From UHGV virus genome UHGV-0118085: a DNA stretch of 17,017 nt; one strand, 5' to 3'. Each line of letters starts with the position of its first letter. Positions within the stretch are counted from its first letter, which is position 1. The notes beneath the pieces are model-generated. The model ran no database searches, had not been told where the DNA came from, and worked only from the letters and a program-made list of their open reading frames with translations. The translations under genes and the position numbers were made by a program. Below, piece after piece: positions 45 to 17,007 of the stretch. This DNA comes from a virus.

Positions 45-89
45 GATAAAAAAAAACCCCACATCATGTGGGGGAAGACAGGGATGGTG
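45..89. repeat. Attachment-site direct repeat, ogr-proximal copy
   Basis: gataaaaaaaaaccccacatcatgtgggggaagacagggatggtg matches 16963..17007 at 44 of 45 positions; the single difference is a at 56 versus c at 16974. The flanks diverge immediately outside the repeat. Confidence 0.8.
48..73 (-). terminator. Intrinsic-terminator-like hairpin inside the att core
   Basis: A 7-bp stem ccccaca/tgtgggg (57..63 and 67..73) with a 3-nt loop follows a run of nine A (48..56). On the minus strand this reads as a GC-rich hairpin followed by a U tract. The same structure is present in the right copy. Confidence 0.5.
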
Positions 90-112
90 ATTTAAATATC
101 ACCATAACCGAA

Positions 113-134
113 TGAAACAAAAGGATTTGTTTCA
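113..134. repeat. Perfect 9-bp inverted repeat tgaaacaaa-agga-tttgtttca
   Basis: Read directly from the sequence, between the att core and the arm-type repeats. Function unknown; possibly a protein-binding site in the att arm. Confidence 0.4.
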
Positions 135-140
135 TGTGAT

Positions 141-158
141 GTCCACACATCGTCCACA
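141..158. promoter_or_regulatory. Two direct GTCCACA repeats 11 bp apart, candidate integrase arm-type sites
   Basis: GTCCACA occurs at 141..147 and 152..158. The same pair with the same 11-bp spacing occurs at 16863..16869 and 16874..16880. Direct repeats one helical turn apart flanking both ends is the pattern expected for tyrosine-integrase arm sites. Confidence 0.5.
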
Positions 159-161
159 TCG

Positions 162-186
162 AAAAAAAGCCCCGCATCTGCGGGGC
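162..186 (-). terminator. Rho-independent terminator immediately 3' of ogr
   Basis: Stem gccccgc/gcggggc (169..175 and 180..186) with loop atct, followed on the minus strand by a run of seven T (162..168). It begins 5 nt after the ogr stop codon. Confidence 0.7.
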
Positions 187-191
187 CTTCA

Positions 192-440
192 TTATATCGC
201 TAAATTTAGTTGATCGCGTCCATAGTGCGAGGCGGGAAAGACGCCTGCAGGAACAAAGTCAGGCGCTAATTTATCGCGCCGCTCACGCTTGGTGACAATT
301 TTTTCAACGCTATTAAGCGTCGTGAATGACAAGCCGCATTCCATGTTCTGGCACTGATGATACTGACGAATCGTGACTTCACTGAGAGGCTTACTGGTGC
401 GGGTGCGGGCCGTAGCGCCACAATGTGGACATTTGAACAT
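192..440 (-). CDS. ogr: Ogr/Delta-type zinc-finger late-gene transcription activator
   Basis: 82-aa ORF with the Cys4 spacing C-x2-C-x22-C-x4-C (CPHC ... CQNMEC) and the YHQCQN motif typical of P2 Ogr. It sits directly downstream of D, as in P2. Confidence 0.85.
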   Translation of the reverse strand: MFKCPHCGATARTRTSKPLSEVTIRQYHQCQNMECGLSFTTLNSVEKIVTKRERRDKLAPDFVPAGVFPASHYGRDQLNLAI

Positions 441-478
441 AATGGTGACTCCCCTGGGGAGTTGAACTCATCGCTATT

Positions 479-1612
479 CTATTCAGTTTCTGCAATCCAG
501 TCAGATATTTTTGCTTCAAAGTTAAGCTGTGTAGTAAATCCATTGCTATCAACGTCATGCTGTACCTTGCTGATTATCCAGTCCTGGGCGTCAATATCTG
601 CCTTAAAACCGGTCACGGTCGAATGCATTTCCGGGTACAACTCCGCACGCCCGCGCGCCAAGGTGATCGAAAACTCCGCCGCGCCGCGCTGTAACTGCTG
701 CCACTTTGCCGCCGCTGCGCGCCTAGCGGCTTCTTCGTTCTGGAAGGTTTTACGCATAATAAAAACGTTACCTTCAGCGCCTTCAATGTAGTCACCTTCC
801 CTGCTGCTGCTCTTATCCTTTTTTTTCGTTGTGGCACGGCGACGAACGCTAACCTTTTTCTTTTTCCCGTAGTTTAGATCAAGCCAGTACGCGCGGACGC
901 CGGTATAAGCGTCACGATCAGCAACCCGGAAGCGGTGCCGGTCTCCACTGCTGCGCGTGATGGCAATCGACGGAATAGCCTTCCCTGATGCAGTGAAACC
1001 ACCACCCGGCACGATAAACAGCAGACTTCCATTTTTTACCGTGGCGATGGCCCCTAACATTTCCGCCATTCTGGTCAGAAATGACATATCGCTTTCCTGA
1101 GTCTGATCGGCGTGATCAATTTCCACATCCATCAACAGATCGCTGATTTGCGGCGTCAGGTCATACCGTTTTGCGATAGCAGACACAATCCGCTCCACAG
1201 TCACATCATGCCAGGAGACTTCACGCTTTACGTTAAACTCTTCTCTGAAATCTGCACTTCTGGCAGTCACGGTGATACGGTCGGGCGGCCCGTCGTGCGC
1301 CACTTCATCAACCGTGTAGATGCCCTTATAAACCAGCGCTTCACCCATCCACCCCAGCCAGAAAGACAACTCAGCGCCACGCGGCGGAAGAGCAACGCTT
1401 CCATCAGTGTCATCCAGCTCTAATGTCAGCTGATCGGCGTCAAAACCCCGGTTGTCCGTCAGGCTGATGGATATCACGCGATCTGATAATTCTGTTAACA
1501 CCTTCCCGCCTTGCCGGACGCTGAATGCTGGTATTTTTAACGCCTCCGTCAGGATGTCATCGACACCGCCAGCCGCGCCCGAAATCATACTGCTGATCAC
1601 TGAAACACTCAT
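479..1612 (-). CDS. D: Phage tail protein D (gpD / late control D family)
   Basis: Long ORF resembling the P2 gpD family and immediately upstream of ogr. The track ORF runs to 1726, but the ATG at 1612..1610 is preceded by GGAGG and gives a P2-D-like length of about 377 aa, so I prefer that start. Confidence 0.8.
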   Translation of the reverse strand: MSVSVISSMISGAAGGVDDILTEALKIPAFSVRQGGKVLTELSDRVISISLTDNRGFDADQLTLELDDTDGSVALPPRGAELSFWLGWMGEALVYKGIYTVDEVAHDGPPDRITVTARSADFREEFNVKREVSWHDVTVERIVSAIAKRYDLTPQISDLLMDVEIDHADQTQESDMSFLTRMAEMLGAIATVKNGSLLFIVPGGGFTASGKAIPSIAITRSSGDRHRFRVADRDAYTGVRAYWLDLNYGKKKKVSVRRRATTKKKDKSSSREGDYIEGAEGNVFIMRKTFQNEEAARRAAAAKWQQLQRGAAEFSITLARGRAELYPEMHSTVTGFKADIDAQDWIISKVQHDVDSNGFTTQLNFEAKISDWIAETE

Positions 1613-1672
1613 ATACCCTCCCGTTTTGCTGAATAATTCCACGCGGGCGCGCGTGGGAGAATTCGTTTTAGT

Positions 1673-1690
1673 TGTCAGAGAGATAGCACA
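1673..1690 (+). promoter_or_regulatory. TGT-N12-ACA dyad, the Ogr-dependent P2 late-promoter activator-site pattern, upstream of FI
   Basis: TGT at 1673..1675, a 12-nt spacer cagagagatagc, then ACA at 1688..1690. The dyad centre is about 70 to 85 bp upstream of the FI start, the right region for an activator site near -55. Confidence 0.5.
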
Positions 1691-1753
1691 ACCAGAAAGG
1701 CGTGAAGCCGTTACGTCAATCAGCAATCATGGTGGCGAACTCAACAAAACGTA

Positions 1754-2956
1754 ATGGTGACAAACATGTCTGAGACACGTTTTCACGGTGCTCGCACCAA
1801 AGAAGAAACCGACATCACGAGGGTAATTAACGACATTGACTCCAGCGTCATTGGCGTGATTGTCATCGCTGATGACGCAGACGAAGACGCTTTCCCACTT
1901 AACATCCCAACGCTTATCACGCGGCCTCAGTCGATGCTCGGCAAGGCAGGGAAAACAGGGACGTTGTACAAAACACTGAAAGCTATTTCAGACCAGGCAA
2001 GCGCGAAAATCATTGTTGTTCGTGTTGCCACGGCTAAACCGCCGGAGGAAGGGAAAACGGCGGAAACACAGTCGCAGTTGATTATTGGTGGCTCTGATGC
2101 TGACGGTAACTACACCGGCATGTATGCGCTACTGACCGCCGAACAAAAAACGGGATATCGCCCGCGCGTCCTGGCGGTGCCGGAATACGATACCGAAGAA
2201 GTAACATCACAGCTTTGCGTGATCGCCAAACAGCTTCGCGCCTTTGTTTATGCTGGCTGTAACGGCTGCAACACACTGGCAGAGGCCCGGCAATATCGTG
2301 AAACCTTCGCATCACGTGAACTCATGCTGATCTGGCCTAACTACATTGCCTATAACCAGGTGTCCGGGGCAAATGAAGAGTTTCCCGCCCCAGCCTATGC
2401 GGTAGGGCTGCGCGCGTTTATTGACAACCAATACGGCTGGCATCGTTCTCTGTCTAACATCGCCGTCAGTAACGTGCTTGGCATGTCGAAGGACGTTTTC
2501 TGGGCGCTCCAGGCTGAAGACAGCGACGCCCAGACGCTGAACAACGATGAAATCACCACCATCATCAAGCGTAACGGCTTCCGCTTCTGGGGCAACCGCA
2601 CCACTGACACCAATGAATTTACTTTTGAGGTGTACACCCGTACGGCGCAAATCCTGGCGGACACCATCGCAGAGGCACAGTTTGAAACCGTTGACGGGCC
2701 ACTTACCCCAACCAACGTGAAAGACGTGGTGAGTGCAATTAACAAGAAACTCAGCGCACTTGTGACCGCTGGCAAGCTGCTTGGCGCGGAGGCGTGGTTT
2801 GACATTGTGGACAACCCGACCGCAAACCTGATTCAGGGAAAAGTGGCGATCCGTTACAAGTATACGCCAGTACCGCCGATGGAAGATTTAACGCTGATCC
2901 AGACGTTCACCGATGAATATTTTGAAGGCGCGTTTTCGTCTCTGGGGAGTAACTAA
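1754..2956 (+). CDS. FI: Contractile tail sheath protein (P2 FI family)
   Basis: 400-aa ORF with tail-sheath hallmarks (DADEDAFPLN near the N-terminus, GFRFWGNRT, LRAF, C-terminal YTPVPP). Its stop is immediately followed by the start of the tube-like ORF, as for FI-FII in P2. The true start may be the ATG at 1766 (MSETRF...). Confidence 0.85.
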   Translation: MVTNMSETRFHGARTKEETDITRVINDIDSSVIGVIVIADDADEDAFPLNIPTLITRPQSMLGKAGKTGTLYKTLKAISDQASAKIIVVRVATAKPPEEGKTAETQSQLIIGGSDADGNYTGMYALLTAEQKTGYRPRVLAVPEYDTEEVTSQLCVIAKQLRAFVYAGCNGCNTLAEARQYRETFASRELMLIWPNYIAYNQVSGANEEFPAPAYAVGLRAFIDNQYGWHRSLSNIAVSNVLGMSKDVFWALQAEDSDAQTLNNDEITTIIKRNGFRFWGNRTTDTNEFTFEVYTRTAQILADTIAEAQFETVDGPLTPTNVKDVVSAINKKLSALVTAGKLLGAEAWFDIVDNPTANLIQGKVAIRYKYTPVPPMEDLTLIQTFTDEYFEGAFSSLGSN

Positions 2957-4039
2957 ATGGCGATTCCAGCAAAATTGCGGCTGTTCACCTGCTTCGTGAA
3001 CAGCGTAAACAATATCGGCAAAGTGACATCTGTGACGCTGCCAAAACTGACCCGGAAAACGGAAGACTACCAGGGCGGCGGCATGATTGGTTCCGTTGCC
3101 GTCGATCTCGGACTGGATATCTGGCGATTCTGGGAACCGATCAAAGCCTTCTTTGCGGGCTTCTTTGCCGGTGTGATGCAGGCTCTTACACCGTTCCGGG
3201 ATGCCTTTGCCGGGCTGGCCCCCGTCTTTGATGTGATCTCGAATGCCGTTTCTGAGTTATGGCAGTGGTTCAGCAACCTGCTTTCACCAATGACGACCAG
3301 CAAAGAGATGCTTGATAAATGCGCAAGCGCTGGGGAGACATTCGGCAAAGTGTTTGGCCTGGCAATTCAGGGGTTAATGTTGCCTCTGACCGGGCTAGCC
3401 AAAATGGTTGGATGGATACTTGAAAAGCTGGGACTGATTCCATCCGGGATTGAAACAGCAAAAGCAAAAGCTGAGAAGGTACAGAAGGAACTAACACCGG
3501 CAGGATTGACTATGCTGCAGGACAAAGTTGGCGCGCTCACTGGTGATGTAAAAGCAGTAACCGCACCACCTATCGCACCGCCATCACCGGTGATTGCCGC
3601 AGATACAGGAACACAACGACGCTTACAGAAAATTGCCGACAACACCGGCGGGATGCTGGATGAAACCAAAAAACGGATCGGCCCTGGCGATATAGTGTTT
3701 AAAAACCTGCCCCGCGCATTAGCCGTCCACGGCACATGGCAGGAAGCACAATCAACCCAAGGCGCTAACCTGACCCAACTGAGCGGGCGACCGGTTATCG
3801 CAGCGGCATCAGCCCCGATTAAACCAGCGGCTGAAATACAGGCTATTGGCGGGCAATCCAGGAAACAAATCAGCAGATCGGCGCAAAACACCACGCCTGA
3901 TGAAATGCATATTCACATTCATATGCACGGCAATTTCAGCAACGACGCCCGCGACATTGCGCGCATGACCGCCGACGCAGTACAGGCAGAATTTAATAAG
4001 CGCTTCCGCTCACGTAGCAGCTTCAGTGACAATGAATAG
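2957..4039 (+). CDS. Chimeric ORF: tail-tube (FII-like) N-terminus fused in frame to a tape-measure (gpT-like) C-terminal portion; probably a deletion remnant
   Basis: The first ~54 residues (MAIPAKLRLF...VTLPKLTRK...VDLGLD) resemble the tail-tube N-terminus. The remainder is an Ala/Gly-rich, partly hydrophobic sequence typical of a tape-measure C-terminus. 360 aa is far too long for a tube protein (about 170 aa) and far too short for a tape measure (about 800 aa). Confidence 0.6.
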   Translation: MAIPAKLRLFTCFVNSVNNIGKVTSVTLPKLTRKTEDYQGGGMIGSVAVDLGLDIWRFWEPIKAFFAGFFAGVMQALTPFRDAFAGLAPVFDVISNAVSELWQWFSNLLSPMTTSKEMLDKCASAGETFGKVFGLAIQGLMLPLTGLAKMVGWILEKLGLIPSGIETAKAKAEKVQKELTPAGLTMLQDKVGALTGDVKAVTAPPIAPPSPVIAADTGTQRRLQKIADNTGGMLDETKKRIGPGDIVFKNLPRALAVHGTWQEAQSTQGANLTQLSGRPVIAAASAPIKPAAEIQAIGGQSRKQISRSAQNTTPDEMHIHIHMHGNFSNDARDIARMTADAVQAEFNKRFRSRSSFSDNE

Positions 4040-4051
4040 GAGAGCAAAACA

Positions 4052-5749
4052 ATGATGATGGTTTACGGAATGTTCGTCTTTGAGTTAAAAACCGTTCCCC
4101 ACCAACAGTTGCAGCAATCAAAGACCTGGAGGCATGTGAAGAACGAACGCATAAACCGATCGGCAAAATGGCAATACATTGGCGCGGGTGACGATCAAAT
4201 CACCCTATGCCAACTCACCATGAAGCCGACAAAGACGGGCGGCGATCTGAAGGAAATTGACGCGCTCACGCGCCAGGTGAAGAAACTGGCAGAAGGACAA
4301 CCGGCGCAGCCATTCAAGAAAGCGCGCGCGAGCAAAAAGAAAAACCACTTCACCGAAGCGCAGATCGCCGCGCTGCGGGAAAAAATTCAGGACTCCTTGG
4401 CCTGGCATCAGCAAGGATGGTTTGAACAGCGCCAGCAGCGCAACCGCATGATCCTGAAAAGTCGCCAGATTGGCGCTACCTGGTACTTTGCCCGTGAAGC
4501 GCTTTTACAGGCGCTGCGGGATGACGTTAAGCACGGGTATCAGCGCAACCAGATTTTTCTGTCAGCGTCACGTCGCCAGGCGCACCAGTTCCGGGGCTTC
4601 ATCCAGAAGGTTGCAGAAGAAGTCGACGTAGAGCTAAAAGGCGGTGACAAAATTTTGTTATCTAACGGGGCCGAATTGCATTTTCTCGGCACGTCTGCTG
4701 CTACCGCGCAGAGCTACACCGGCAACCTGTTTTTCGACGAATTTTTCTGGGTAGGTAACTTTGCCAACCTCCGCAAGGTGGCTGGCGCAATGGCAACCCT
4801 GAAAGGACTGACGCGCACTTATTTTTCAACGCCATCGAGCGAAAGCCATGAAGCCTACCCCTTCTGGACGGGTAAGCGCTGGAATGAGAAGCGGGCAAAA
4901 TCCAGCCGAGTAGAGTTCGACACAAGCTGGAAGACGCTCAACAGCGGCCTGTTGTGCCCGGATAAAACCTGGCGGCAGATTGTCACCCTGAAGGACGTGA
5001 TCGACCACGGCTGGGAGTTCACCGACCTGGAAGAAATCCAGGACGAAAATACCCCGGACGAATACACCAACCTGTACATGTGTGAGTTCGTCAAAGAAGG
5101 TGAATCCGTTTTCTCACTTAATCAGCTACTGACGTGCGGCGCGGACGGCTACGACGACTGGCAGGACTGGAAACCCTACGCCCCCCGCCCGCTTGGCGAT
5201 CGTGAAGTCTGGATAGGCTACGACGCCAACGGCGGCAGTGGCAACGGTGACAGCGGCGCTGTTTCCGTGGTTACCCCTCCCCTGGTCAGTGGCGGCAAGT
5301 TCCGCACGATAGAGACGCGCCAGCTACGCGGGATGGAGTTTGAAGAACAGGCCAAAGTGATCGAAGACCTGACCATTAAATACAACGTCCGGCACATCGC
5401 AATTGACGGTACCGGCATTGGTGAAGCGGTCTGGCAACTGGTCAAGAAATTCTTCCCGGCGGCGGTCTGTTTCATCATGTCGCTGTCATCAAAGCGCACT
5501 CTGGTACTCAAAATGCAGCAGGTGATCCGCGCGGGCCGCTGGGAGTATGACCGTAGTGAACAGGCGTTAGTGTCAGCATTCAACGCCGTCAGGAAAATCA
5601 CCACCGCCGGTGGACAAATTACCTATGACACCGATCGCGCGCGCGGCGTCAGTCATGGCGACTTAGCCTGGGCAAATATGCTGGCAATCATCAACGAGCC
5701 ACTTGGACGCGAGAACGGCAGCGGCGGCGGTTCCGTAAGAGAGTTTTAA
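4052..5749 (+). CDS. Chimeric ORF: gpU-like tail-protein N-terminus (about 65 aa) fused in frame to a nearly complete large terminase (gpP-like, ATPase plus nuclease)
   Basis: The N-terminus MMMVYGMFVFELKTVPHQQLQ...WRH...ITL...TGG matches the gpU family pattern. The rest carries terminase large-subunit features (KSRQIGATWYFAREAL, QIFLSAS, GNLFFDEFFWV, YFSTPSS...YPFWTG, C-terminal IAIDGTGIG). An RBS (GGAG) precedes the ATG, and the stop overlaps the Q start (TAATG). Confidence 0.65.
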   Translation: MMMVYGMFVFELKTVPHQQLQQSKTWRHVKNERINRSAKWQYIGAGDDQITLCQLTMKPTKTGGDLKEIDALTRQVKKLAEGQPAQPFKKARASKKKNHFTEAQIAALREKIQDSLAWHQQGWFEQRQQRNRMILKSRQIGATWYFAREALLQALRDDVKHGYQRNQIFLSASRRQAHQFRGFIQKVAEEVDVELKGGDKILLSNGAELHFLGTSAATAQSYTGNLFFDEFFWVGNFANLRKVAGAMATLKGLTRTYFSTPSSESHEAYPFWTGKRWNEKRAKSSRVEFDTSWKTLNSGLLCPDKTWRQIVTLKDVIDHGWEFTDLEEIQDENTPDEYTNLYMCEFVKEGESVFSLNQLLTCGADGYDDWQDWKPYAPRPLGDREVWIGYDANGGSGNGDSGAVSVVTPPLVSGGKFRTIETRQLRGMEFEEQAKVIEDLTIKYNVRHIAIDGTGIGEAVWQLVKKFFPAAVCFIMSLSSKRTLVLKMQQVIRAGRWEYDRSEQALVSAFNAVRKITTAGGQITYDTDRARGVSHGDLAWANMLAIINEPLGRENGSGGGSVREF

Positions 5750-6984: not shown

Positions 6985-7030
6985 CCCCGCCGCGCGGGCT
7001 TTCCCCCCGTCACCTGCGCGCGGCAAACAC
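6985..7030. other. Putative cos (cohesive-end / packaging) region
   Basis: A GC-rich palindromic stretch containing gctttcccc, which resembles the reverse complement of the P2 cos end as I recall it. It lies about 190 bp past the portal stop, where cos is expected in this orientation. The match is partial. Confidence 0.3.
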
Positions 7031-7152: not shown

Positions 7153-9924
7153 TTAATCATCTAGCAACGGATCTTGTGCCTTACTGGAATTAACTTGCTC
7201 CAAATGCTTAATACAATCTTCACTTGAAATAAAATAGACCTTAGGTTTTTTCCTTAGCTCATATGTCAAAAATACTGTCACTTCCATTTTTACATACGTT
7301 TTCAGATTAGTTTCATTTATATCTAATCCTCTTGAAGTCAACAAACTATCAGATGGAGAAGTGAAAGATGCTTTTAATATATCGTCTCCCTCAAGAGAAA
7401 AACAACAAACATCATCAAGATGAATATAATAAAAACCATCCTTATTAAATTTTACATCATTTTGTACTCTATATCTCATTCCTCTGTAGAATCTGACGTT
7501 ATGATCAAAATCATTCTCTATTGCGCTTATAGTTATAAACTTCAAACCTTCAGGGAGTTGGTTAAGATTCTTAATAATAACAACATCCATATCATGAAGA
7601 TCACTAATCAAATGAGAAGTGATGAGTTTGAAAACATTTGCCGCATATAAAGATGGAGATTGGGAATATATTTCTCCATTAATGGGCTTAATAATCTGTC
7701 GCTTCGTAATTAGATATTCAAAAACAAACTTGTCACTAATATTTTCACAACTACACTCTAAAGTAGCAAACTCACGAAATGTTTTTATGAAATCATTTTT
7801 TAATCCATCTTCATATAGCTTCATGAGTTCTTCATCATAAGGAGTATTGATCACATCATTGACTTGAATATCAAGAATCTTAGAGTTTATTTCTTCAAAT
7901 CCAGAAAGTAGATTATGCTTACGCTCATCAAAACTATTAAGCTCATCATTATGAGCTTCTAATTCGAGTAAATCCATAACTTCTCTAAAAAAATCTGATT
8001 GATATATAGACATGACATCATCTATAAAATGAGATGAAAGATTATTTACCTTTACAAGGTTCTCTAAATCATCAATATATATTAGACTTAAACCATTATT
8101 GTACGAACGACCTTTGAATAAAATCAATGCTAAAGCAAAAGCCATATAATGTTGTGATCTTATAGAAATAGCACCTGAGCCAGTTGCATCCCTTATTTCA
8201 AACTCATCTATATCATCTAAAAAAACAGATTTTAACGAAAAAAGAATATCATAAACTTCTGATATGAAGTAAATCTCCGTTAAGTAATGAGGATTCAACC
8301 ATTGGCTCAGCAAGTTTGCCAGATCTAATATTTCCTCATTCTTATTTTTTAGTTCACATAATCGAATGCCATCATTTTTTCCTAGTAGGTGCTCCAACCG
8401 CATTCCAATACAAGATATCACTATTTTATTCGCATCAATCAGCAAGGATTGTCTAGTATTCAATTCAGATGATGAAATGCCAATATAAATGTTATTATTC
8501 CCAGTAAGAAATGTAGTGTTTATTTTAAAAGCATCATAATGTCTATTGACAAGGTTTTTAATACTCGACTTAAGATAAATCTCAAGAAACTTATCACTTT
8601 CAGAATACATAACTCTTTCTTCTGTGAAACTCCTAGACTCAATCAAAAAACCATAATATGAAGATGGATCATAAATTATTCTCGGAAGAGAAAGCATAGA
8701 ACTAAAGACGATTAGAGCTTTTTCAATATCGGTATATAGAAGAAGCCATAGCAACTTATTATAAAACGCGAATAGTATTGTTTGTGGTGTATTTTTTGAG
8801 GATGGGGATTCATATATGAATCGTTCCAAACTTAAAAACACTCCTGCACTTTGAGATTTTGAAATTATTAAATATATTACTTCCACACAAAAATCAAGTT
8901 GACTACTTAAACTCCCCTGCAAGGTGTTTAATGTATTCCTTACAACCATCAACTCTATTTCATCATAAAAATAGAAATTTTCGCTTTCATTAAGATAATT
9001 GAATGATTTACTAATGAGCGTTTTAATTTTATTAAGAGACTCATGATTTTGATTCAAATTAATGCCTTCATCAGAAAAAATAATGGCATCTCTATCAATC
9101 ATAGGCTTGTGAAATGTAGGTGAGATATATAATACAACTTTTGAAGTGCCGAAAATTTTTGTTAGTTCAGCATTCAATTTATTTAGATTATTCTTATTAA
9201 GGCCAACTATTACTTTCTTATCCGTAGAATATGTATTTTTAATTTTTACTCCATTTAGAGGCATGAACTCCATTTCATATTTAATAACTGAATTCTGTTG
9301 GTTTTTTATAAAATTACGAAATTCAGCAAGTAGATGCTTGCTATTATTATTACTATCTAAAACAAATGAACTAACTTCCGTTACTTTATTCAATAAAATT
9401 GCATCAATCAACTCTTTTTTCTCTGTTATATAATATAAACTCCTGAACATGGATATGTATCGGAATATAAAAAAAACAGAGCATGATACTGACAAGGCAT
9501 ATTGAATAACCCCCCCACCGATTACCAAGAAAAAGATTCCCACAAATAATCCGCAAATAGCATTAAGGCTGAATGAATAAAATTTATATTCTCTCAATAC
9601 CAATTGCCTTGTTACATTAACAAAATACTTATTTGATGCCTCTGTAACCTGTTGAACAAACATTCCCATAAATGCAATTGATAATGCAGCGATTGTTCCG
9701 TGGATTGATAATATAGTTCCCCAAGAGCTAGGAATCCAATTTAACTCTGCTTTATTAACGTATAACGGAGAAATAAAGAGCCAGCGATAGTCAGAATCTC
9801 CTCCTGCCCCTACAAAAAATAAAACCGAACCTAAAAGCAAAATTAAACCCATCTTAATAAAAGACTCAATTGCTTTTTTACCTGTGAATTCAGCCACCTG
9901 CTTTGATATTTTACCACTATCCAT
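7153..9924 (-). CDS. Large AT-rich cargo protein of unknown function with about four N-terminal transmembrane helices; candidate anti-phage defence or exclusion protein
   Basis: Uninterrupted 923-codon ORF. Sampled 60-nt lines inside it give 19/60 and 14/60 G+C, against 37/60 in a sampled line of gene A. Hydrophobic segments fall at residues about 25-41, 66-90 and 118-165 (nt about 9430..9852). No Walker A, HUH, DPPY or other motif recognised in the soluble part. It occupies the P2 tin/old position between A and cos/Q. Confidence 0.8.
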   Translation of the reverse strand: MDSGKISKQVAEFTGKKAIESFIKMGLILLLGSVLFFVGAGGDSDYRWLFISPLYVNKAELNWIPSSWGTILSIHGTIAALSIAFMGMFVQQVTEASNKYFVNVTRQLVLREYKFYSFSLNAICGLFVGIFFLVIGGGVIQYALSVSCSVFFIFRYISMFRSLYYITEKKELIDAILLNKVTEVSSFVLDSNNNSKHLLAEFRNFIKNQQNSVIKYEMEFMPLNGVKIKNTYSTDKKVIVGLNKNNLNKLNAELTKIFGTSKVVLYISPTFHKPMIDRDAIIFSDEGINLNQNHESLNKIKTLISKSFNYLNESENFYFYDEIELMVVRNTLNTLQGSLSSQLDFCVEVIYLIISKSQSAGVFLSLERFIYESPSSKNTPQTILFAFYNKLLWLLLYTDIEKALIVFSSMLSLPRIIYDPSSYYGFLIESRSFTEERVMYSESDKFLEIYLKSSIKNLVNRHYDAFKINTTFLTGNNNIYIGISSSELNTRQSLLIDANKIVISCIGMRLEHLLGKNDGIRLCELKNKNEEILDLANLLSQWLNPHYLTEIYFISEVYDILFSLKSVFLDDIDEFEIRDATGSGAISIRSQHYMAFALALILFKGRSYNNGLSLIYIDDLENLVKVNNLSSHFIDDVMSIYQSDFFREVMDLLELEAHNDELNSFDERKHNLLSGFEEINSKILDIQVNDVINTPYDEELMKLYEDGLKNDFIKTFREFATLECSCENISDKFVFEYLITKRQIIKPINGEIYSQSPSLYAANVFKLITSHLISDLHDMDVVIIKNLNQLPEGLKFITISAIENDFDHNVRFYRGMRYRVQNDVKFNKDGFYYIHLDDVCCFSLEGDDILKASFTSPSDSLLTSRGLDINETNLKTYVKMEVTVFLTYELRKKPKVYFISSEDCIKHLEQVNSSKAQDPLLDD

Positions 9925-10104
9925 AAGAGCACCACTTTAATATGTAAATTACAAATCAAGAGTTATAATTAACACACACAACGAAACCGTCTCTATTCTC
10001 ATAAAATACGCCAACGCATATTAGATATAGACCTCTAAGTTTCGGTTCTGATTGAATTGATAAAAAAATCATTTCACTATATGCTTTGAGGGAAGTAAAA
10101 GTAT

Positions 10105-12594
10105 TCATCTTTCAGGGGCAATCCTTTTCAACATTCTAGTGTAATATCCAATTGGATCATGCCTAATGTTACCACAGTCAATATTATGTCTTATTTGCAT
10201 ACGTTGCCACAACGCCCTGATTTTAGAGTCCATGCTGGAGTCTGATCGACGTCGCACTTCTCCATTGTTGTTGGCATAAACAACACTTTCATCAATACGC
10301 AAATGTTCGCCGCGTAACAACAACTTTATTTGGCCTGTACTCAGCTTCATGCCGATAGATCTGGCATAGTCATCCATTACAGCTATGCGTGCTTCAGGTA
10401 TTGGCACAGTGACATGGTCAGCAGGCATACATTTTTCCTGTTGGCGCAACTCATGAGCTACCTTCAGATAGATCTCTGCTCTAGCCTGCTCAATTTCACC
10501 ACAATCAAATGCCGTAATAGCATTAGCAAGCGCTTCAAATTCATCAGCAGGTGATTTTTGCCGTTTCGATTTGTAGTTTCTTAAACCTTCATTAAGACGC
10601 ATTTTCTGTTCGCGGGTCATTTGACCAATTTCATACTGTTCGGGTTCGTCCGGTTGTGAATTTTCACATACTGATTTTGTGTGTTTTTTGTACTCAGTAC
10701 AGTTATTGACACGAGTCCAAGAGGGCGCGGGCGCGCCCTTAAGGTCAAAACCTCGACCAGCGTCGTCGTCTGCTTTTGGCTTCATTTTGACAATACGATA
10801 AGAATGGAGACGGGTTTCAACCGGAGGAATAGTCGATGCTGGCATGACTACGCCTTTAATGACTCTCTGAAACTCGCCGTAACTGCTCGGTTCATCCCGG
10901 TACTGATACCATGCGCGCAACACAAGCCTATTCCGTGCCACGAACGGGCCACCCTGCAAGGTAATGTAGTCCTGCCAGTTCCCCGCATGTGCGGCGCGAT
11001 GTAACTCACCGAAAACCGGACTGATACGATCTGCCATTTCCTGATTCTTCAGGCGGCGCAACTCGCGCCAGACAGACACCGGCGCACCACCCAAAAACTG
11101 AAACTGACGAATGCCCCAGCATGAAGCCCAGGCGGTAGCGTGTTTTGCTGTTTCCTTCAGTGGACGTCCGCTTTCGTCGTCGCTTTCACCATCCAGCGCG
11201 TAGCCATCAATATTTTTAGATATGTACTTAACAACATAGCCAGTAGCACTCCCCAAAGCCGGATCTATTGGCTTAAGCTCAAAGCGCGGTTGCTTGCCAG
11301 TCTTGCCGGTTAGCTCGTCTGCATCCTCACGTGTGGCGTAGTCTTCCATCACTTCCAACAACTCGCCGGTATGTTCCGGGGCAGTGAACAGAAGGCCATG
11401 CCAATGCGGAGTAGCATCATGGTGAGATTCAGCAACGCGAAGGCCAAAAACAGGAATCTCACGGCGCGCAAGCTCCGCGCGGATCAGCTGCCAGACGTGA
11501 TTAAGGTAGTTCTGTGTTTTGCGTGGGCTTGCTCCGTTCCATTTATGATTACGATGCCCGAATACTGTAAAAGCATGATATTTAGACGGTGCGGTCAACG
11601 TGAAGAAACTACCGGCAAAACCGCTTTCTGTTGCCACTTTCTCAAAGCCACCAATGCGCGTCATCAACTCAACGCGGCGCTTTTCAGGGTTAGAAATACT
11701 TTTATCAATCTGCTCTATCAGCGAAATGCGCTCGCCAGTTACCTGATCTTCAAGTTCAAGACGGCTCATAATTTCGCGACTACGCTTACGGCGGGAATCC
11801 CACTGTGTAACGTGGTGTTTGCTGCAATACGGTGAAACATCGCGGCGCACATCACCATAAGCAATGTGCAAATGCTCACGCCAGCGGCGGGCGTACTTGC
11901 GCAGAAGGCGTGACCAAAAGCGATCGTGCGTGGTTTTTTGTATTGCCGCCGCCGCTTCATCAAGCGCCATCCGGCGCTTCTTCGCCCAAGGTGCCACCAA
12001 CCTGAAATACGCAATTAGTCTAGAGCCTTCACGCACCATGCGTTTGCCGTACTCAGCATCACTAAACATGCTCGCGCCTTCACTCACTTCAGCCAAAACG
12101 GCATTGGCATAAATGGCAATGTCCTGTGCCAACAAATCAATATCTTCATCGGTACTATCAGCCAGATTATTGAAGCGGTGCGCTAGCTCACGCAGATTTT
12201 CAAACGTGTGAAATAGTGGGTTTAGTTCAGAGAAAATGATCCAATCATTGTCTTCTGGTACCGCGTATTGATTCGTGACGTTACGGACGTGTGGAAGCTC
12301 GCGCTTAACGATATCGCGTAGCTTCAGTTTTGCGATATGACGTCCTTTATCCTCGTGAACGGTATTTATGTAAAAAGCAATGCGACGGCGAATGAAAGAA
12401 GGTAACGGCTTAAGGGTATCTTCTACCCATGCGAAAAACTCCTGCTCTTGACCCAATTCATATAGGTCAACAGCGGGAGTCTTATCGACGGAAATGGCCT
12501 GTTTGGGCTCATTCCAGGCGTAAGCATACCGGGCTGGCTCAACCGAGCCTCCCGGCATGGAGGTCATGCTATGGGTGCGGCGAACTGAAGTCAT
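10105..12594 (-). CDS. A: Rolling-circle replication initiator endonuclease (P2 gpA family)
   Basis: HUH motif PHWHGLLF (nt 11398..11406) and the twin-tyrosine motif YVVKYISKN (nt 11224..11238) with the two Tyr three residues apart, as in P2 A and phiX174 A. The track start at 12597 is a TTG; the ATG at 12594 is preceded by AAGG, so I prefer it. Confidence 0.9.
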   Translation of the reverse strand: MTSVRRTHSMTSMPGGSVEPARYAYAWNEPKQAISVDKTPAVDLYELGQEQEFFAWVEDTLKPLPSFIRRRIAFYINTVHEDKGRHIAKLKLRDIVKRELPHVRNVTNQYAVPEDNDWIIFSELNPLFHTFENLRELAHRFNNLADSTDEDIDLLAQDIAIYANAVLAEVSEGASMFSDAEYGKRMVREGSRLIAYFRLVAPWAKKRRMALDEAAAAIQKTTHDRFWSRLLRKYARRWREHLHIAYGDVRRDVSPYCSKHHVTQWDSRRKRSREIMSRLELEDQVTGERISLIEQIDKSISNPEKRRVELMTRIGGFEKVATESGFAGSFFTLTAPSKYHAFTVFGHRNHKWNGASPRKTQNYLNHVWQLIRAELARREIPVFGLRVAESHHDATPHWHGLLFTAPEHTGELLEVMEDYATREDADELTGKTGKQPRFELKPIDPALGSATGYVVKYISKNIDGYALDGESDDESGRPLKETAKHATAWASCWGIRQFQFLGGAPVSVWRELRRLKNQEMADRISPVFGELHRAAHAGNWQDYITLQGGPFVARNRLVLRAWYQYRDEPSSYGEFQRVIKGVVMPASTIPPVETRLHSYRIVKMKPKADDDAGRGFDLKGAPAPSWTRVNNCTEYKKHTKSVCENSQPDEPEQYEIGQMTREQKMRLNEGLRNYKSKRQKSPADEFEALANAITAFDCGEIEQARAEIYLKVAHELRQQEKCMPADHVTVPIPEARIAVMDDYARSIGMKLSTGQIKLLLRGEHLRIDESVVYANNNGEVRRRSDSSMDSKIRALWQRMQIRHNIDCGNIRHDPIGYYTRMLKRIAPER

Positions 12595-12603: not shown

Positions 12604-12777
12604 TTAGATGGAAACAGTGTCGCCGGGCTGTATTGCTCTGGCGTCACGTTCTGAATAGGTGATCAGATCTGTATTGCTGTAACCCCCCTCACCCAGAACC
12701 TCAACACGAGTTATCCAGTAATTACGGCGCGGGAGCACATCCAGCACCTTTGTCACAACGACCTCAACGGGATTCAT
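12604..12777 (-). CDS. Hypothetical small protein (57 aa), translationally coupled to the methyltransferase
   Basis: Hand-translated as MNPVEVVVTKVLDVLPRRNYWITRVEVLGEGGYSNTDLITYSERDARAIQPGDTVSI. Its ATG (12777..12775) overlaps the methyltransferase stop codon (12779..12777) by one nucleotide (TGATG), with AGGAGG upstream. It is below the ORF-track length cutoff. Confidence 0.45.
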   Translation of the reverse strand: MNPVEVVVTKVLDVLPRRNYWITRVEVLGEGGYSNTDLITYSERDARAIQPGDTVSI

Positions 12778-13760
12778 CAGAACACCTCCTGATCATCAAA
12801 AGCACCAGAGGCAACCATTTCTGAATAGGTCGCATCAGCCATCACAGCACCGCAATCAGGACAACCGCCGCCAGTACGCCCACAACAACCACAAACGCGT
12901 AGAAAGCCGATCACCTCGCCAGCCAAGTTGCGAGATTTGGCCCCTACAGATCGGCGGATTTCGAATGAATTAAGGGTGAACGGGTAGTAAATTTTGCGGG
13001 TTTCCGGGGTATCGCTACCGGAAAAAACAGACAGGCATCCTTCGTTGTTATGAGCGGTAATCAATGACTCAACCAGGTCACGGTGATCATCGACAGTGAA
13101 GGGTTTACCGTACGCGGTAAAATCAGCCGTTTTACTCGCTGGCAGGTAAGGCGGATCACAGTAAATTACTGTGCGCTCAAATATGCGACTAGCAACAGGG
13201 ATGGTGTAACGGAAATCAGCGCAAAGAAACTGAGCACCTTTCTCATATGCTCGTTTTGCAAAGTGCTGGATCTCTGCAACAGGGAAAATTGGCTTGCGGC
13301 GACGACCAAATGGAACGTTAAATTCATTCTTCCCATTCACTCGGTATAAACCGTTATAGCAATGACGGTTTAGATAAAGGAATAATGCTGCAAACTTTAC
13401 AAGTTCACTCTGATAATAAACCTTTCCATCAGAAGTTTTTTTATTATGCTGGGGGAAATCACGATTAAAATCATTAAATTCATTGCGGCATTTATAATAT
13501 GCCTCTTCATTATTACCGCCATCAAATAGAGTAGCAGCGACATCTAGCAACGATTTAGTATTGTTCTTCAATATTGAATAGAAGTTCATAAGCGCTGCGT
13601 TGCTATCACACAGAATATAGGTTTTATAGTCAGTGTTCAGAAAGACGCTACCACTACCTACAAAAGGCTCAACGAGACATTCACCCTTTGGCAAAGCCTC
13701 CAGTACATGAGGCATCGCGCGAGACTTGCCGCCCGCCCAGATCAGAGGGGAGTTAACCAT
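12777..13760 (-). CDS. Dam-type N6-adenine DNA methyltransferase with a Cys-rich C-terminal tail
   Basis: N-terminal SPLIWAGGK...EPFVGSGSV (AdoMet-binding) and catalytic DPPY (nt 13146..13157). I start it at the ATG at 13760 (MVNSP...), preceded by AAGGAG, rather than the track start at 13832. The C-terminus carries CGCCGRTGGGCPDCG (nt about 12852..12893). Confidence 0.85.
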   Translation of the reverse strand: MVNSPLIWAGGKSRAMPHVLEALPKGECLVEPFVGSGSVFLNTDYKTYILCDSNAALMNFYSILKNNTKSLLDVAATLFDGGNNEEAYYKCRNEFNDFNRDFPQHNKKTSDGKVYYQSELVKFAALFLYLNRHCYNGLYRVNGKNEFNVPFGRRRKPIFPVAEIQHFAKRAYEKGAQFLCADFRYTIPVASRIFERTVIYCDPPYLPASKTADFTAYGKPFTVDDHRDLVESLITAHNNEGCLSVFSGSDTPETRKIYYPFTLNSFEIRRSVGAKSRNLAGEVIGFLRVCGCCGRTGGGCPDCGAVMADATYSEMVASGAFDDQEVF

Positions 13761-14000: not shown

Positions 14001-14282
14001 TTAGCGAGCACCGCTATTCCAGTATTTCTCTAATTCAACACTGAAGGCGTCACAAATAGAGCCGCCCGGAAGAATAGAAAATTGAATGCCCGTCTCTTTA
14101 CATCGCACTTCAAAACCATTTCGAGCAATATCAGATAGCGCCATGCCCTGAACAACATTACGCGATTTGCTGTGCTGATGACTTGGACTATAGCCGCTGC
14201 GAGACGGTGTGCGGGTTCCATCCTGCCGGGAAGCATTGACGCTCTGTCGGGCGTTCAGAATAGCTGCTGTTGAGGTGGTCAT
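14001..14282 (-). CDS. Hypothetical early-operon protein (93 aa)
   Basis: ORF in the cox-to-A early operon; its ATG overlaps the stop of the upstream ORF (ATGA). No motif recognised. Confidence 0.55.
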   Translation of the reverse strand: MTTSTAAILNARQSVNASRQDGTRTPSRSGYSPSHQHSKSRNVVQGMALSDIARNGFEVRCKETGIQFSILPGGSICDAFSVELEKYWNSGAR

Positions 14283-14530
14283 AACCCCCCCGGCTGAGAG
14301 TGATCAATTGCAAGTGGTAAAGGCACTACACCACTCATTACAGCGCTAATGGTTGGAAGCAGATCATCAATAGTTTCATTATCGCGCAAACAGAAAGCGG
14401 CACCGTAGAGGTGCTGAAGGCCGCTAGCCAATACGCCGTAATGTGACTCATGGCCTTGAGGGTTGTTTTCCATGTTGAAATGGTAATCCTGGAGCATTTC
14501 ATTTACCTGCTCCGCGTAGCAACGTTTCAT
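14279..14530 (-). CDS. Hypothetical early-operon protein (83 aa)
   Basis: ORF with an ATG start at 14530 overlapping the upstream stop. No motif recognised. Confidence 0.55.
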   Translation of the reverse strand: MKRCYAEQVNEMLQDYHFNMENNPQGHESHYGVLASGLQHLYGAAFCLRDNETIDDLLPTISAVMSGVVPLPLAIDHSQPGGL

Positions 14531-14787
14531 TGTTCACCCCTGTCGAATTTGACTGTCTCGGAAGGTATGGAGACCTGGCTATTCCGGCATTCCGGCGCAC
14601 GCTCAAGAACGATTGACACGGCATAGCAAAGGTCTTCATCGGTCAGGTCAAGCATGTCCTTTACGCGCAGGATTGCTAAAGTCGCCTTTGCTCGCTTAGT
14701 TACGCGTGAGGTTGCAGCCTCTTTTTTCGCGGTTGCCAACATTTTTTTAGCGGCTGGTGATAACTGATGAGAAAGTAAAAGACTCAC
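14527..14787 (-). CDS. Hypothetical early-operon protein (86 aa), GTG start
   Basis: The start codon at 14787..14785 is GTG, preceded by AGGAGG 4 nt upstream, and it overlaps the upstream stop (GTGA). Confidence 0.5.
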   Translation of the reverse strand: MSLLLSHQLSPAAKKMLATAKKEAATSRVTKRAKATLAILRVKDMLDLTDEDLCYAVSIVLERAPECRNSQVSIPSETVKFDRGEQ

Positions 14788-14975
14788 GCGGCCTCCTGTC
14801 TCAGTTGATCAATGGTTGAAAGGGCTTCAGCTAACGCGAAATCCAGCCCCAGATAATTACCATCTTTGGTGATTTGGTAACGCTGGCGTGAATACGGCTT
14901 TTTGCGTGGCAGCTTCACAATAGTGAAGCCGCGATAGATTGCTGTTTTGCTGTTGATCTGGATAAGCATCATCAA
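14784..14975 (-). CDS. Hypothetical early-operon protein (63 aa)
   Basis: ORF starting 18 bp after the cox stop on the same strand; first gene of the overlapping chain. Confidence 0.5.
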   Translation of the reverse strand: MMMLIQINSKTAIYRGFTIVKLPRKKPYSRQRYQITKDGNYLGLDFALAEALSTIDQLRQEAA

Positions 14976-14992
14976 TCCCTTAGCTTCAGTTA

Positions 14993-15265
14993 TTAAAGGC
15001 CCATCCAGAGCAACCAGGCATCACGCTGTTCAACCGGGCGGTTATAGAACGCCTCACGCACCCCGCGATTGAACTCAGGAACAAAGACCAGCTTTTCTCC
15101 CGCGCGCGCTTTTGGCTTCGACGGATCACGAAACTCAATAACCGGCAGCTTATTTTTTTCAATCATGGTTTGTACGGCTGTGCGTGGTTTACCTAGCAAT
15201 TCCGCGAACTTATCAGGATGTACCGCATCAAGCGGGTACTGAATAACGTAATCAGCAGCTTCCAT
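14993..15265 (-). CDS. cox: Cox-like excisionase / early repressor of the lysogenic promoter
   Basis: 90-aa ORF divergent from the C repressor gene, resembling P2 Cox (FAELLGKPRTAVQTMIEKNKLPVIEF...). It is the first gene of the minus-strand early operon leading to A. Confidence 0.75.
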   Translation of the reverse strand: MEAADYVIQYPLDAVHPDKFAELLGKPRTAVQTMIEKNKLPVIEFRDPSKPKARAGEKLVFVPEFNRGVREAFYNRPVEQRDAWLLWMGL

Positions 15266-15426
15266 AAACTATCTCCATTCTCATTTGGTTACATGCTAAC
15301 CTTGTAAGATCCAGCGGCTTTAAAACGGCTCAGGATGGTTCCTGAGCGGCTGGACTCACGCCCAAAAAGGTTCTGAGTCAATGACCTTTTCGGGTGAGTA
15401 TAGTCATTAAGTCAGGACCAAATCAA
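15266..15426. promoter_or_regulatory. Divergent early/lysogenic promoter-operator region between cox and C
   Basis: 161-bp intergenic region between divergent cox and C. It contains a perfect palindrome gctcagga-tggt-tcctgagc (15328..15347), near-direct repeats ggttcctgag / ggttctgag (15338..15347 and 15369..15377), and a -10-like TATAGT (15399..15404) upstream of C. Confidence 0.55.
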
Positions 15427-15720
15427 ATGAATCTTGCTCAAAAATTGCGAGCGATCAGGAAGGCAGAAGGGCTAACACAGGCTAAATTCTGTGAAATCAG
15501 CGGGATAGCGTTAGGAACGCTGAAGAATTACGAAGGAGGGCATCAAGAGCCAGGTATACAAGTGATCATGCAGGTAACTAACACGGCGCATTTTGAAAAA
15601 TACACCCTGTGGTTAATGACCGATAAGACAGCACCAGAAGCCGGGCAGATTTCCCCGGCCGTCGCACACTCTGGGCAAGACGAAACAACCTCGTCACCAT
15701 CAGGCCGCAAAACTGGCTAA
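15427..15720 (+). CDS. C: Immunity repressor C (P2 C family, helix-turn-helix)
   Basis: The C-terminal half (FEKYTLWLMTDKTAPEAGQISPAVAHSGQDETTSSPSGRKTG) closely resembles P2 C. I start it at the ATG at 15427 (MNLAQKL...), preceded by AGGA, giving 97 aa; the track ORF begins at a GTG at 15394. Confidence 0.85.
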   Translation: MNLAQKLRAIRKAEGLTQAKFCEISGIALGTLKNYEGGHQEPGIQVIMQVTNTAHFEKYTLWLMTDKTAPEAGQISPAVAHSGQDETTSSPSGRKTG

Positions 15721-15862
15721 CGATTAACCGGGACTATATTTATTACATAAGTTGTTTACTTGTAAGGAAATATAATTTCAGGCGTTACAAAGAAGTAAGT
15801 AAGAAACCTCGGACTGTTACTACTAATCCGTGCAAGTTTGAAAGCTCTATTCGGAGGGTCTT

Positions 15863-16843
15863 ATGACTATCAAAAGACTCGATGATGGGCGTTATGAAGT
15901 GGATATCAGACCGCGCGGGCGTGAAGGACGTCGCATCCGCCGAAAATTTGAGAGAAAGGCTGAAGCTATTGCCTTTGAGCGCTACACATTAGCGAACGCT
16001 AACCAGAAGGAATGGGCGGGCCAGAGAACAGATCGCAGATCTCTATCTGAATTACTGGATGCCTGGTGGAAGTATCACGGTCAAAACCATGAACACGGTG
16101 AGAAGGAATTTAACCACCTCACGAAGACGATCGGCGGCATCGGTGACATACCCGTTAGCCGCGTGAGCAAACGGCTCCTGATGGACTACCGTTCTATGCG
16201 ACTTCGTGACGGTATCAAGGCATCAACAATTAACCGTGATATGTACCGTTTTTCAGGCATGTTCACCAAGTTGATTCAGTTGGAAGAGTTTTCCGGCACA
16301 CATCCAGTGCATGGACTACCGCCACTGGCAGAAGAAAACCCAGAAATGACATTTCTGGCAAAGGAAGAGATCAGCAGCTTACTAAATGCCTTAACCGGCG
16401 ATGCAAGATTGATTGCCCTTCTGGGCGTCAGTACCGGTGCGCGATGGTCTGAGTTGGCAACGTTAAAGCCTTCTCAGATCGTCAATTGCCGCGTGACTTT
16501 CCTGAAGACCAAAAACGGGAAAAAGCGCACTGTTCCAATTTCTGCTGAACTAGAAAAACTGATCAAGAGGGAGGCAAGCGCGAAACTGTTTAAAGTGGAC
16601 TATGAAAAATTTTGTCTGATCCTGAAGGCGGTAAAACCAGATATACCCCCGAACCAGGCAACACATATTCTGCGTCATACCTTCGCAAGTCATTTTATGA
16701 TGAATGGGGGTAACATTATCGCGCTACAGCAGATATTAGGACATGCCAGCATCCAGCAAACGATGGTTTACGCGCATCTGTCGCCAGACTATCTGCAAAA
16801 TGCTGTCTCACTAAATCCCCTTGCCGGTGGCGTATCGCTTTAA
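15863..16843 (+). CDS. int: Tyrosine integrase (P2 Int family)
   Basis: 326-aa ORF with the catalytic signature HILRHTFASH ... MVYAHL (H-x-x-R and the nucleophilic Tyr). It lies downstream of C on the same strand and next to the right att repeat, as in P2. Confidence 0.9.
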   Translation: MTIKRLDDGRYEVDIRPRGREGRRIRRKFERKAEAIAFERYTLANANQKEWAGQRTDRRSLSELLDAWWKYHGQNHEHGEKEFNHLTKTIGGIGDIPVSRVSKRLLMDYRSMRLRDGIKASTINRDMYRFSGMFTKLIQLEEFSGTHPVHGLPPLAEENPEMTFLAKEEISSLLNALTGDARLIALLGVSTGARWSELATLKPSQIVNCRVTFLKTKNGKKRTVPISAELEKLIKREASAKLFKVDYEKFCLILKAVKPDIPPNQATHILRHTFASHFMMNGGNIIALQQILGHASIQQTMVYAHLSPDYLQNAVSLNPLAGGVSL

Positions 16844-16854
16844 GATAGGAGTGA

Positions 16855-16887
16855 CCTAGAGTGTCCACATTGTGTCCACACTCTAGG
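16855..16887. promoter_or_regulatory. Inverted repeat cctagagtg / cactctagg enclosing two direct GTCCACA repeats; candidate integrase arm-type sites
   Basis: GTCCACA at 16863..16869 and 16874..16880, 11 bp apart, identical in sequence and spacing to 141..158. It sits between the integrase stop and the att core. Confidence 0.5.
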
Positions 16888-16962
16888 AAATTCAAAACGG
16901 CTCAGGCTGGCTCCAGCATTTTATAAGTAGCTGTTTTTACTTGAGGTTATACGTAAGTTATT

Positions 16963-17007
16963 GATAAAAAAAACCCCCACATCATGTGGGGGAAGACAGG
17001 GATGGTG
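16963..17007. repeat. Attachment-site direct repeat, int-proximal copy
   Basis: Matches 45..89 at 44 of 45 positions and includes the same A-run plus ccccaca/tgtgggg hairpin. Confidence 0.8.

Follow-up and report, generated by a model that had tools for sequence, protein, structure and literature searches.

The viral genome UHGV-0118085 (17,017 nt; here called the window, meaning the whole stretch of DNA analyzed) carries a 16,963-bp element that we take, at a probability of roughly three in four, to be a non-autonomous and very recent derivative of a P2-family prophage with the gene order of phage P88, produced by two deletions and residing in the 3' untranslated region (3'UTR) of Escherichia coli cpxP. 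Comparison with relatives and host genomes established the anatomy of the element, the endpoints of both deletions, the attachment (att) site and the recency of the deletions. An initial annotation, made from the sequence of the window alone, had described a half-size P2-like prophage lacking capsid, lysis and baseplate genes. Indeed, the element measures 16.96 kb, against 29.6 kb for the intact relative in E. coli ES1 and 32.1 kb for the contig carrying the closest intact relative.

Genes were assigned by Pfam and PHROG scans of the window open reading frames (ORFs). These confirmed ogr, D, FI, Q, A, a D12-class adenine methylase, cox, C and int, in agreement with the retained genes listed in the initial annotation, and the P2-type core genes (ogr, D, FI, FII, T, U, P, Q, A, cox, C, int) stand in P2-type modules. 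Absence was assessed by tblastn of all 39 proteins of the intact ES1 prophage against the window (E<=1e-3), which found no trace of E, E', G, H, I, J, W, V, S or R, nor of the LysB/C-like genes, lysozyme, the holin-position ORF, X, L, M, N or O. The earlier list of missing genes therefore holds, and no remnants of these genes were found elsewhere in the window. With FII, T, U and P truncated and the others absent, the virion, packaging and lysis set is incomplete, so that the element is a defective derivative and not a functional phage. It has lost essential genes that close intact relatives possess, as defective prophages do, and both these near-identical relatives and the tblastn search agree with the proposal that a P2-family prophage without capsid, baseplate, fibre or lysis genes forms no particles alone. 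The retained genes show no frameshift or stop apart from the two junctions.

Two in-frame deletions in a P88-type gene order

D on the minus strand and FI on the plus strand are divergent in the window, unlike in P2. The same arrangement is native to the intact ES1 prophage and to phage P88 (Xuanwuvirus), in which ogr-D (minus) are followed by FI-FII-E-E'-T-U (plus), the fibre, baseplate, lysis and head genes (minus), P-Q (plus), the hotspot, A to cox (minus) and C-int (plus); a partly deleted prophage, AMSCJX04, has FI-U and P-Q in the same orientation as ES1 and P88. An inversion as the origin of the D/FI divergence and of the joined U and P genes was rejected, as the ES1 relative and P88 are natively so ordered. 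Since U and P are co-oriented in this order, in which the FI-FII-E-E'-T-U block is inverted relative to D, a single deletion can fuse U to P and plain deletions suffice to explain the element. The likeness to P88 concerns gene order: P88 is a complete 35.8-kb phage whose nucleotide identity to the window is low and patchy, and genus membership is not set by it.

The window is collinear with ES1 in five blocks of 84-92% identity, and is 99.9-100% identical to the relatives L031, L034 and L036 in common segments. Alignment to a complete P2-like genome, the check suggested in the initial annotation, mapped both deletion endpoints when ES1 and L031/L036 were used; missing from the window are ES1 coordinates 9485-12397 and 13498-25484. 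Deletion 1 (2,916 bp relative to L031) extends from FII codon 55 to about T codon 684, with a 'TA' microhomology at junction 3118-3119, and also took E and E'. Deletion 2 (~12 kb relative to ES1) joined U codon 51/52 to P codon 61 across a 'TAT' microhomology at 4206-4208. It took the tail-fibre, baseplate, tail-completion, lysis, head-completion, small-terminase, capsid and scaffold genes together with the divergent pO/pP promoter region. Neither junction shifts the reading frame.

The large terminase had been described as N-terminally replaced. Its N-terminus does differ, and the change can now be stated as an in-frame U'::'P fusion made by one deletion. The 60 residues missing from the P fragment carry the HTH_23/Terminase_5 region in full-length relatives, and the small terminase M is gone. 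Moreover, P has lost its own promoter region, so it is expressible only by read-through from the FI promoter. Thus the view that packaging genes were kept is nominally correct in that Q and P are present, but P is without its start and promoter and M is lacking.

A second variable locus lies between U and the fibre genes in relatives. L036, the closest intact relative (7417-7809; SRR30760020), and P88 (26977-27564) carry a DNA invertase there with alternative tail-fibre/assembly genes, and ES1 has an acyltransferase where these two carry the invertase. The locus is gone from the window through deletion 2.

Integration at an attB core in the cpxP 3'UTR

The element is bracketed by two 45-nt direct repeats (Table 1), identical at 44 of 45 positions and with a start-to-start spacing of 16,918, which the initial annotation had tied to integration. 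Each of the two copies aligns with P2-like phage sequence at attP, next to int. A synthetic empty site was built from the left flank, a single repeat copy and the right flank (689 nt). In 4,593 of 5,426 complete E. coli genomes (85%) this sequence is unbroken at >=99% identity, always between fieF and cpxP, and it was matched at 100% identity in NZ_CP025851.1, again between these two genes. Because the repeat occurs contiguously and once in empty sites, the two copies are a duplicated attB core and no chance repeat. The element has the tyrosine integrase and the att core duplicated at its ends that are expected of an integrated P2-like prophage.

A tRNA scan of the window found none, so the att site is not a tRNA. 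Instead, the core consists of a hairpin followed by a T-run and lies ~26 nt downstream of the cpxP stop codon, which places it within the cpxP 3'UTR; the 45-bp repeat is thus the attB core of this 3'UTR, duplicated by integration. The small RNA (sRNA) CpxQ derives from the cpxP 3'UTR (PMC4817254). An Rfam Hrs1 match at 16966-17017 (E 4e-4) is truncated at the window end and below the gathering score, and sub-threshold Hrs1 matches occur at both window ends. Integration leaves an intact core copy beside cpxP (attR) and a partial second copy, with a 1-nt variant, at attL.

The P2-like prophage Wphi1 of E. coli W has been reported in the cpxP-fieF interval as well (PMC3032704). Wphi1 belongs to the same phage family and is a complete prophage, whereas the element in the window is defective; both E. 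coli W prophages are complete, at 31,005 and 32,732 bp, and which of them is Wphi1 is not stated (PMC3032704). The int/att region of the window is only ~75-80% identical to that of described P2-like phages. Separately, the empty-site query matched NZ_JBQJRQ010000002.1, a 32,330-bp separate record of the 'complete' assembly of E. coli 2020N21-246-1, in nothing but the 45-nt att core (16242-16286). This record possibly represents a P2-like phage whose genome was assembled as a separate replicon.

Both deletions are recent, and the locus is deleted repeatedly

The retained proteins match those of relatives that still have the late genes. Ogr is 100% identical to that of L031 and L036, which have a complete tail module, and D is 99.7-100% identical to theirs over residues 18-377. 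The exact FI protein is also encoded by the intact relatives GCA_031331435.1, GCA_031298555.1 and SRR30760020. Q is 100% identical to that of L038, L040 and L047, which have complete head and lysis genes, and the exact protein occurs in 228 blocks of the collection, intact prophages included. C, Cox, Int and Dam have 100% identical counterparts in L022 and L029, the latter of which also has a 574-aa terminase call and Q; Cox is in addition identical to that of L038 and L047, and the exact integrase is found in 57 collection blocks, among them relatives with other cargo. This pattern dates the deletions as very recent, and the sequence identities indicate that the element is a fresh deletion product and not a long-decayed remnant. 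The initial annotation had called it a decaying prophage; defective it is, but just deleted, with no decay beyond the junctions and with proteins 100% identical to those of its relatives. No single complete parent prophage was found, and near-identical relatives still hold the lost genes. As C is 100% identical in siblings, the element is homoimmune with them.

At least three further, independent deletion patterns were observed at the fieF/cpxP site. L042 (GCA_013750095.1) lacks ES1 coordinates 9570-21440 and 22286-24830, and L045/L046 (GCA_054837795.1, GCA_019320455.1) lack 13529-26826, which leaves derivatives of about 17.6 and 18.6 kb, respectively. The third, L059 of Citrobacter cronae (GCA_016502245.1, 6671-13976), at the orthologous site, retains a Q fragment, the cos region, an intact cargo gene, a frameshifted A, an int fragment and one att copy. 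The deletion endpoint in U of L045 lies 31 nt from that of the window, and this region may be a deletion-prone spot. Taken together, the central late region has been lost repeatedly at this locus, while both ends persist.

Distribution of the element and evidence for mobility

The protein index lists the U'::P fusion, in its exact form, on 22 contigs and FII'::T' on 21. NCBI records of the fusion proteins are EHK3585487.1, HGU6748936.1, EHK3585486.1 and HGU6748935.1. Carriers are the E. coli isolates GCA_018022265.1 and GCA_047770995.1, ENA metagenomes that include human gut samples, and Logan assemblies, and all copies are 0-1 SNP from the window over up to 15.7 kb. A whole-window search of the 5,426 complete E. 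coli genomes (RefSeq) returned none with >=80% of the element, and the U'::P junction had 0 matches in IMG/VR and JGI metagenome contigs, so that the element was found only via the exact-protein index.

The main alternative to vertical persistence is that the element is a helper-dependent mini-phage, which would excise and replicate itself, be packaged into the capsids of a co-resident or superinfecting sibling P2-like phage, possibly as a cos-to-cos dimer of ~33.8 kb, and so spread between E. coli lineages. We regard this as unlikely, though it is the strongest of the rival explanations. It draws first on the flanks. The element differs by 0-1 SNP in ~16 kb across many samples, and metagenome contigs that join it to the cpxP-rha flank differ from the isolates and from each other by 37-84 SNPs per 9.8 kb (0.4-0.9%) with none in the element. 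However, these contigs are metagenomic and may be chimeric, the flanks of the two isolate genomes do not differ, and the first 2.7 kb of the right flank (cpxPRA) is too conserved for placing recombination endpoints. We therefore rejected the divergence between flank and element as proof of horizontal transfer: the discordant metagenome flanks are suggestive, not decisive.

Flank haplotype and prophage type are decoupled in isolates too. L023 has the same flank as L026 and a different prophage, L042 shares its left flank with the carriers but holds another deletion derivative, diverged by 2.3%, and intact relatives with near-identical phage arms have flanks that are 0.5% diverged. Independent lysogenization followed by deletion accounts for this decoupling as well as mobility does.

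A second line of support comes from packaging. The cos-like region is kept, at 99.5% identity to relatives whose late genes are intact, and two copies of the element would amount to 33.8 kb, ~105% of the 32.1-kb contig of the closest intact relative. The other derivatives, at 17.6 and 18.6 kb, would nevertheless form dimers 10-16% above the parental genome size. P4 sid mutants are said to have been packaged as multimers in P2-size heads in the work of Shore et al. in 1978. A precedent for outside help is Sp13 of E. coli O157:H7 Sakai, a P2-like prophage without morphogenesis genes, head and packaging genes among them, which excises, replicates and is packaged with the help of other prophages (PMC2669165). 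Here, the excised attP junction (int-att-ogr) had 0 matches in IMG/VR and JGI metagenome contigs, and the long contigs are all in the integrated state. Furthermore, sheath, D, portal and a truncated terminase form no coherent hijacking toolkit and look like the leftovers of two deletions.

A potential helper was seen once. On contig k141_171365 of ERZ27266050 (L005 1-2544 = L051 19988-22379), the end of a second P2-family prophage lies in tandem, left of the attL of the element, with a common att core. This end is 98% identical to Enterobacter phage phiT5282H (phiT5282H/SEN4-like), and its integrase is 66% identical to that of the window. Its C and Cox ORFs differ in length from those of the element, and the contig ends before the late genes. 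That the element is a naturally arisen half-genome 'mini-P2', excising, replicating and packaged by sibling or heteroimmune P2-like helpers, seems to us slightly less probable still than the mini-phage explanation in general.

Other explanations

A domesticated interference module is far less probable. Here the chimeric proteins, with spare sheath, D and portal, would be expressed on Ogr-type activation and poison the assembly or packaging of related phages, beside the immunity conferred by C. In its favor, neither deletion breaks the frame, long chimeric ORFs remain downstream of a candidate Ogr-dependent promoter, and C is 100% identical to that of siblings. Two in-frame junctions would, however, arise by chance about once in nine cases, the other independent derivatives have different junctions and no similar chimeras, and selection on the chimeras could not be detected in so young an element.

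An assembly artefact, that is, a collapsed or chimeric assembly of an intact prophage, can be dismissed with near certainty and was rejected: related prophages are hard to assemble (PMC3032704), yet the same two junctions occur in independent assemblies and pipelines (GCA_018022265.1, GCA_047770995.1, several ENA MEGAHIT metagenomes and Logan contigs), and contigs of 50-140 kb span both junctions and the host flanks.

Two further candidates fit poorly. An R-type tailocin was rejected, given a truncated tube and tape measure and the absence of baseplate, fibre and lysis genes (tblastn). A P4-like, PICI or cfPICI satellite lacks its markers, PICI-type primase or capsid-remodelling genes included, since every ORF of >=300 aa is a P2 gene or the cargo and replication is by a P2-type A; Pfam and PHROG scans of the window gave no satellite family match. 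Likewise, a satellite lineage independent of its helper disagrees with retained segments that are 99.9-100% identical to intact phages.

Gene inventory and cis-acting elements

The features of the window are collected in Table 1. The small early-operon ORFs gave no family matches, nor did a 50-aa ORF at 9956-10108 on the minus strand, which lies directly 5' of the cargo gene, overlaps A at its end and is called in some Logan contigs.

Table 1. Features of the window, with positions, strand and the basis of each assignment
Feature	Position	Strand	Basis or remark
attL, 45-bp att core (fieF side)	45..89		direct repeat D1; holds a terminator-like hairpin
Hairpin and T-run 3' of ogr, likely ogr terminator	162..186 (hairpin 169-186)	-	position matches ogr terminator annotated in P2
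ogr, late-gene activator, 82 aa	192..440	-	PF04606 Ogr_Delta, E 4.5e-19
D, 377 aa	479..1612	-	PF05954, phrog_52; mechanical ORF extends to 1726
TGT-N12-ACA dyad, candidate Ogr-dependent late promoter element (pF)	1673..1690		153-bp divergent D/FI intergenic region
FI, tail sheath, 396 aa	1766..2956	+	Pfam sheath domains
FII(1-54)::T(C-terminal ~306 aa), in-frame fusion	2957..4039	+	Phage_tube, residues 4-54 only; tape-measure PHROGs, 43-359
U(1-51)::P(61-574), in-frame fusion	4052..5749	+	GpU, residues 6-75; Terminase_6N and 6C, residues 133-548
Q, portal, 353 aa	5749..6810	+	phrog_68, E 5e-145
cos-like sequence GGTGACGGGGGGAAAGCCC	6996..7014	-	15/19 bases as in the P2 cohesive end
Hotspot cargo, 923 aa, ~30% GC	7153..9924	-	hotspot between A and Q
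A, replication-initiation nickase, 829 aa	10105..12594	-	PF05840, E 5e-95; phrog_91, E 1e-225
D12-class N6-adenine methyltransferase, 327 aa as called	12777..13760	-	PF02086, E 7.6e-53; ORF extends to 13832
Small early-operon ORFs, 55, 93, 83, 86 and 62 aa	13762..14975	-	called alike in relatives L022 and L029
cox, 90 aa	14993..15265	-	Phage_Cox assigned to the gene in the collection
24-nt repeat copy 1, candidate Cox box	15319..15342		cox/C switch region; repeat D2
C, immunity repressor, 97 aa	15427..15720	+	helix-turn-helix (HTH) matches
int, tyrosine integrase, 326 aa	15863..16843	+	PF24624, PF00589
24-nt repeat copy 2, candidate Cox box	16891..16914		arm between int and att core
attR, 45-bp att core	16963..17007		overlaps cpxP 3'UTR terminator (CpxQ sRNA region)

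Three cis-acting elements were assigned from position and similarity. The TGT-N12-ACA dyad type has three matches in the whole window, one of them within the D/FI intergenic region; the P2 activator-site annotation and its position suggest that this dyad is a site for the Ogr-family activator. The 24-nt repeat TTYAAAACGGCTCAGGMTGGYTCC occurs once in the cox/C switch and once in the int-att arm, and its 17-nt core matches the window three times; none of 200 shuffles attained as many. According to the annotation of the P2 record, Cox binds the Pc region and attP beside int. As the repeat copies lie at both places where P2 Cox binds, they are candidate Cox boxes by position.

The putative cos-like site came from local alignment only: a search of the window for P2 cos with <=3 mismatches gave no match, and the 4-mismatch candidate aligns to P2 cos locally and has the P2 geometry relative to Q, a second 4-mismatch match occurring elsewhere by chance. 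The surrounding region is 91-99.5% conserved in intact relatives, and P88 is among its best matches, at ~82%.

The hotspot cargo gene

The cargo gene sits in the cos-proximal hotspot between gpA and gpQ, a locus with known anti-phage systems (PMC9122126). The first ~170 residues of its product include several hydrophobic stretches that seem to span the membrane; helical-repeat-like and alpha/beta regions follow. The protein had no Pfam, PADLOC or NCBIfam match, and its AlphaFold model (pLDDT 76) gave only generic helical fold matches, none of them informative. Its homologues form only 14 clusters, all in Enterobacterales, and the exact protein occurs in no context other than this element. In a Kosakonia P2-like prophage with A, Q, P, head and lysozyme genes still present within the 18.8 kb fetched, the A/Q hotspot holds a 36%-identical member; other family members lie in non-P2 islands.

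An 81%-identical homologue, also of 923 aa, is intact in the Citrobacter remnant L059, with a dN/dS of 0.205, which is the pattern of an accessory gene kept under purifying selection while phage genes degrade; for the window copy this evidence is indirect. The initial annotation had proposed that the prophage is kept as a carrier of its cargo, and to this proposal the intact gene in L059 and the dN/dS of 0.2 lend indirect support. The gene is a plausible candidate for a defence or exclusion function.

Discussion

The reading of the element as a recent two-deletion prophage derivative would have the following course. The tyrosine integrase would have inserted a temperate Peduoviridae phage between fieF and cpxP, and two illegitimate-recombination deletions, each at 2-3 nt of microhomology, removed ~15 kb. 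Left over is a complete, unaltered lysogeny and early module (int, C, cox, small ORFs, dam, A with ori), the hotspot cargo, the cos-like site and a stump late operon, running from pF through FI, FII'::T', U'::'P and Q, with D and ogr divergent from it. The element itself should thus be capable of neither lysis nor particle assembly. Upon derepression, which is probably still possible, Int and Cox could probably excise it and A replicate it; excision is likely because Int, Cox, both att sites and the candidate Cox boxes are intact. C would provide immunity against homoimmune siblings, in addition to an effect of the cargo, and persistence would be favored as the cost went with the lethal late functions and the cargo, perhaps also the immunity, was useful.

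Several points weigh against this account. Excision, replication and a benefit from the cargo are inferred, and the cargo has no recognizable domain or fold. The in-frame state of both deletions (a chance of ~1/9) is not significant, and could hint at selection for fusion proteins. In addition, differing flanks around an element with no SNPs, as appear in metagenomic contigs that may be chimeric, are not predicted by purely vertical persistence.

Among known systems, Sakai Sp13 is similar in that most morphogenetic genes are gone and integration, regulation and replication are kept. However, Sp13 belongs to an unrelated lineage at another site, is not among the top matches of the window and carries a P4 epsilon-like gene; its behavior was shown by experiment, where ours is deduced, and the deletions in the window are much younger and can be mapped with precision. 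A description at scale exists of defective P2-like regions whose defence genes are conserved (PMC13586616), and the 'ogr-D'' remnant of E. coli K-12 is likewise P2-like (PMC3032704). In both, mobility and structural genes are lost and adjoining hotspot genes are intact, which is exactly what L059 shows for this cargo family. In contrast, the window is at an early stage, with every retained gene intact and both att sites, int and cox present, and, unlike in the regions described at scale, its cargo is no recognized defence system. If mobilized, the element would resemble P4 in having an integrase, its own replication, a candidate P2-type cos by a cargo hotspot and a dependence on P2-family structural genes, but it is without the alpha primase, sid, psu and delta of P4 and has no function for redirecting capsid size.

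In kind this is an ordinary defective prophage, unusually well documented, and no new kind of biology. It offers a clean and datable example of the first step of prophage domestication, with both junctions known to the base. The derivatives at the same site show successive stages of decay, down to the Citrobacter remnant that keeps the cargo, and this series lends support to the idea that cargo in P2 hotspots outlasts the phage by which it arrived. The family of the 923-aa membrane protein also stands out as a candidate defence or exclusion gene. If the element were helper-mobilizable, it would bear on the origin of satellites from phages. As a mini-P2 it would explain an identical 16.9-kb sequence in many gut samples and apparently different E. 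coli backgrounds, and would show the passage from phage to satellite at its very first step, a new membrane-anchored hotspot gene being the payload.

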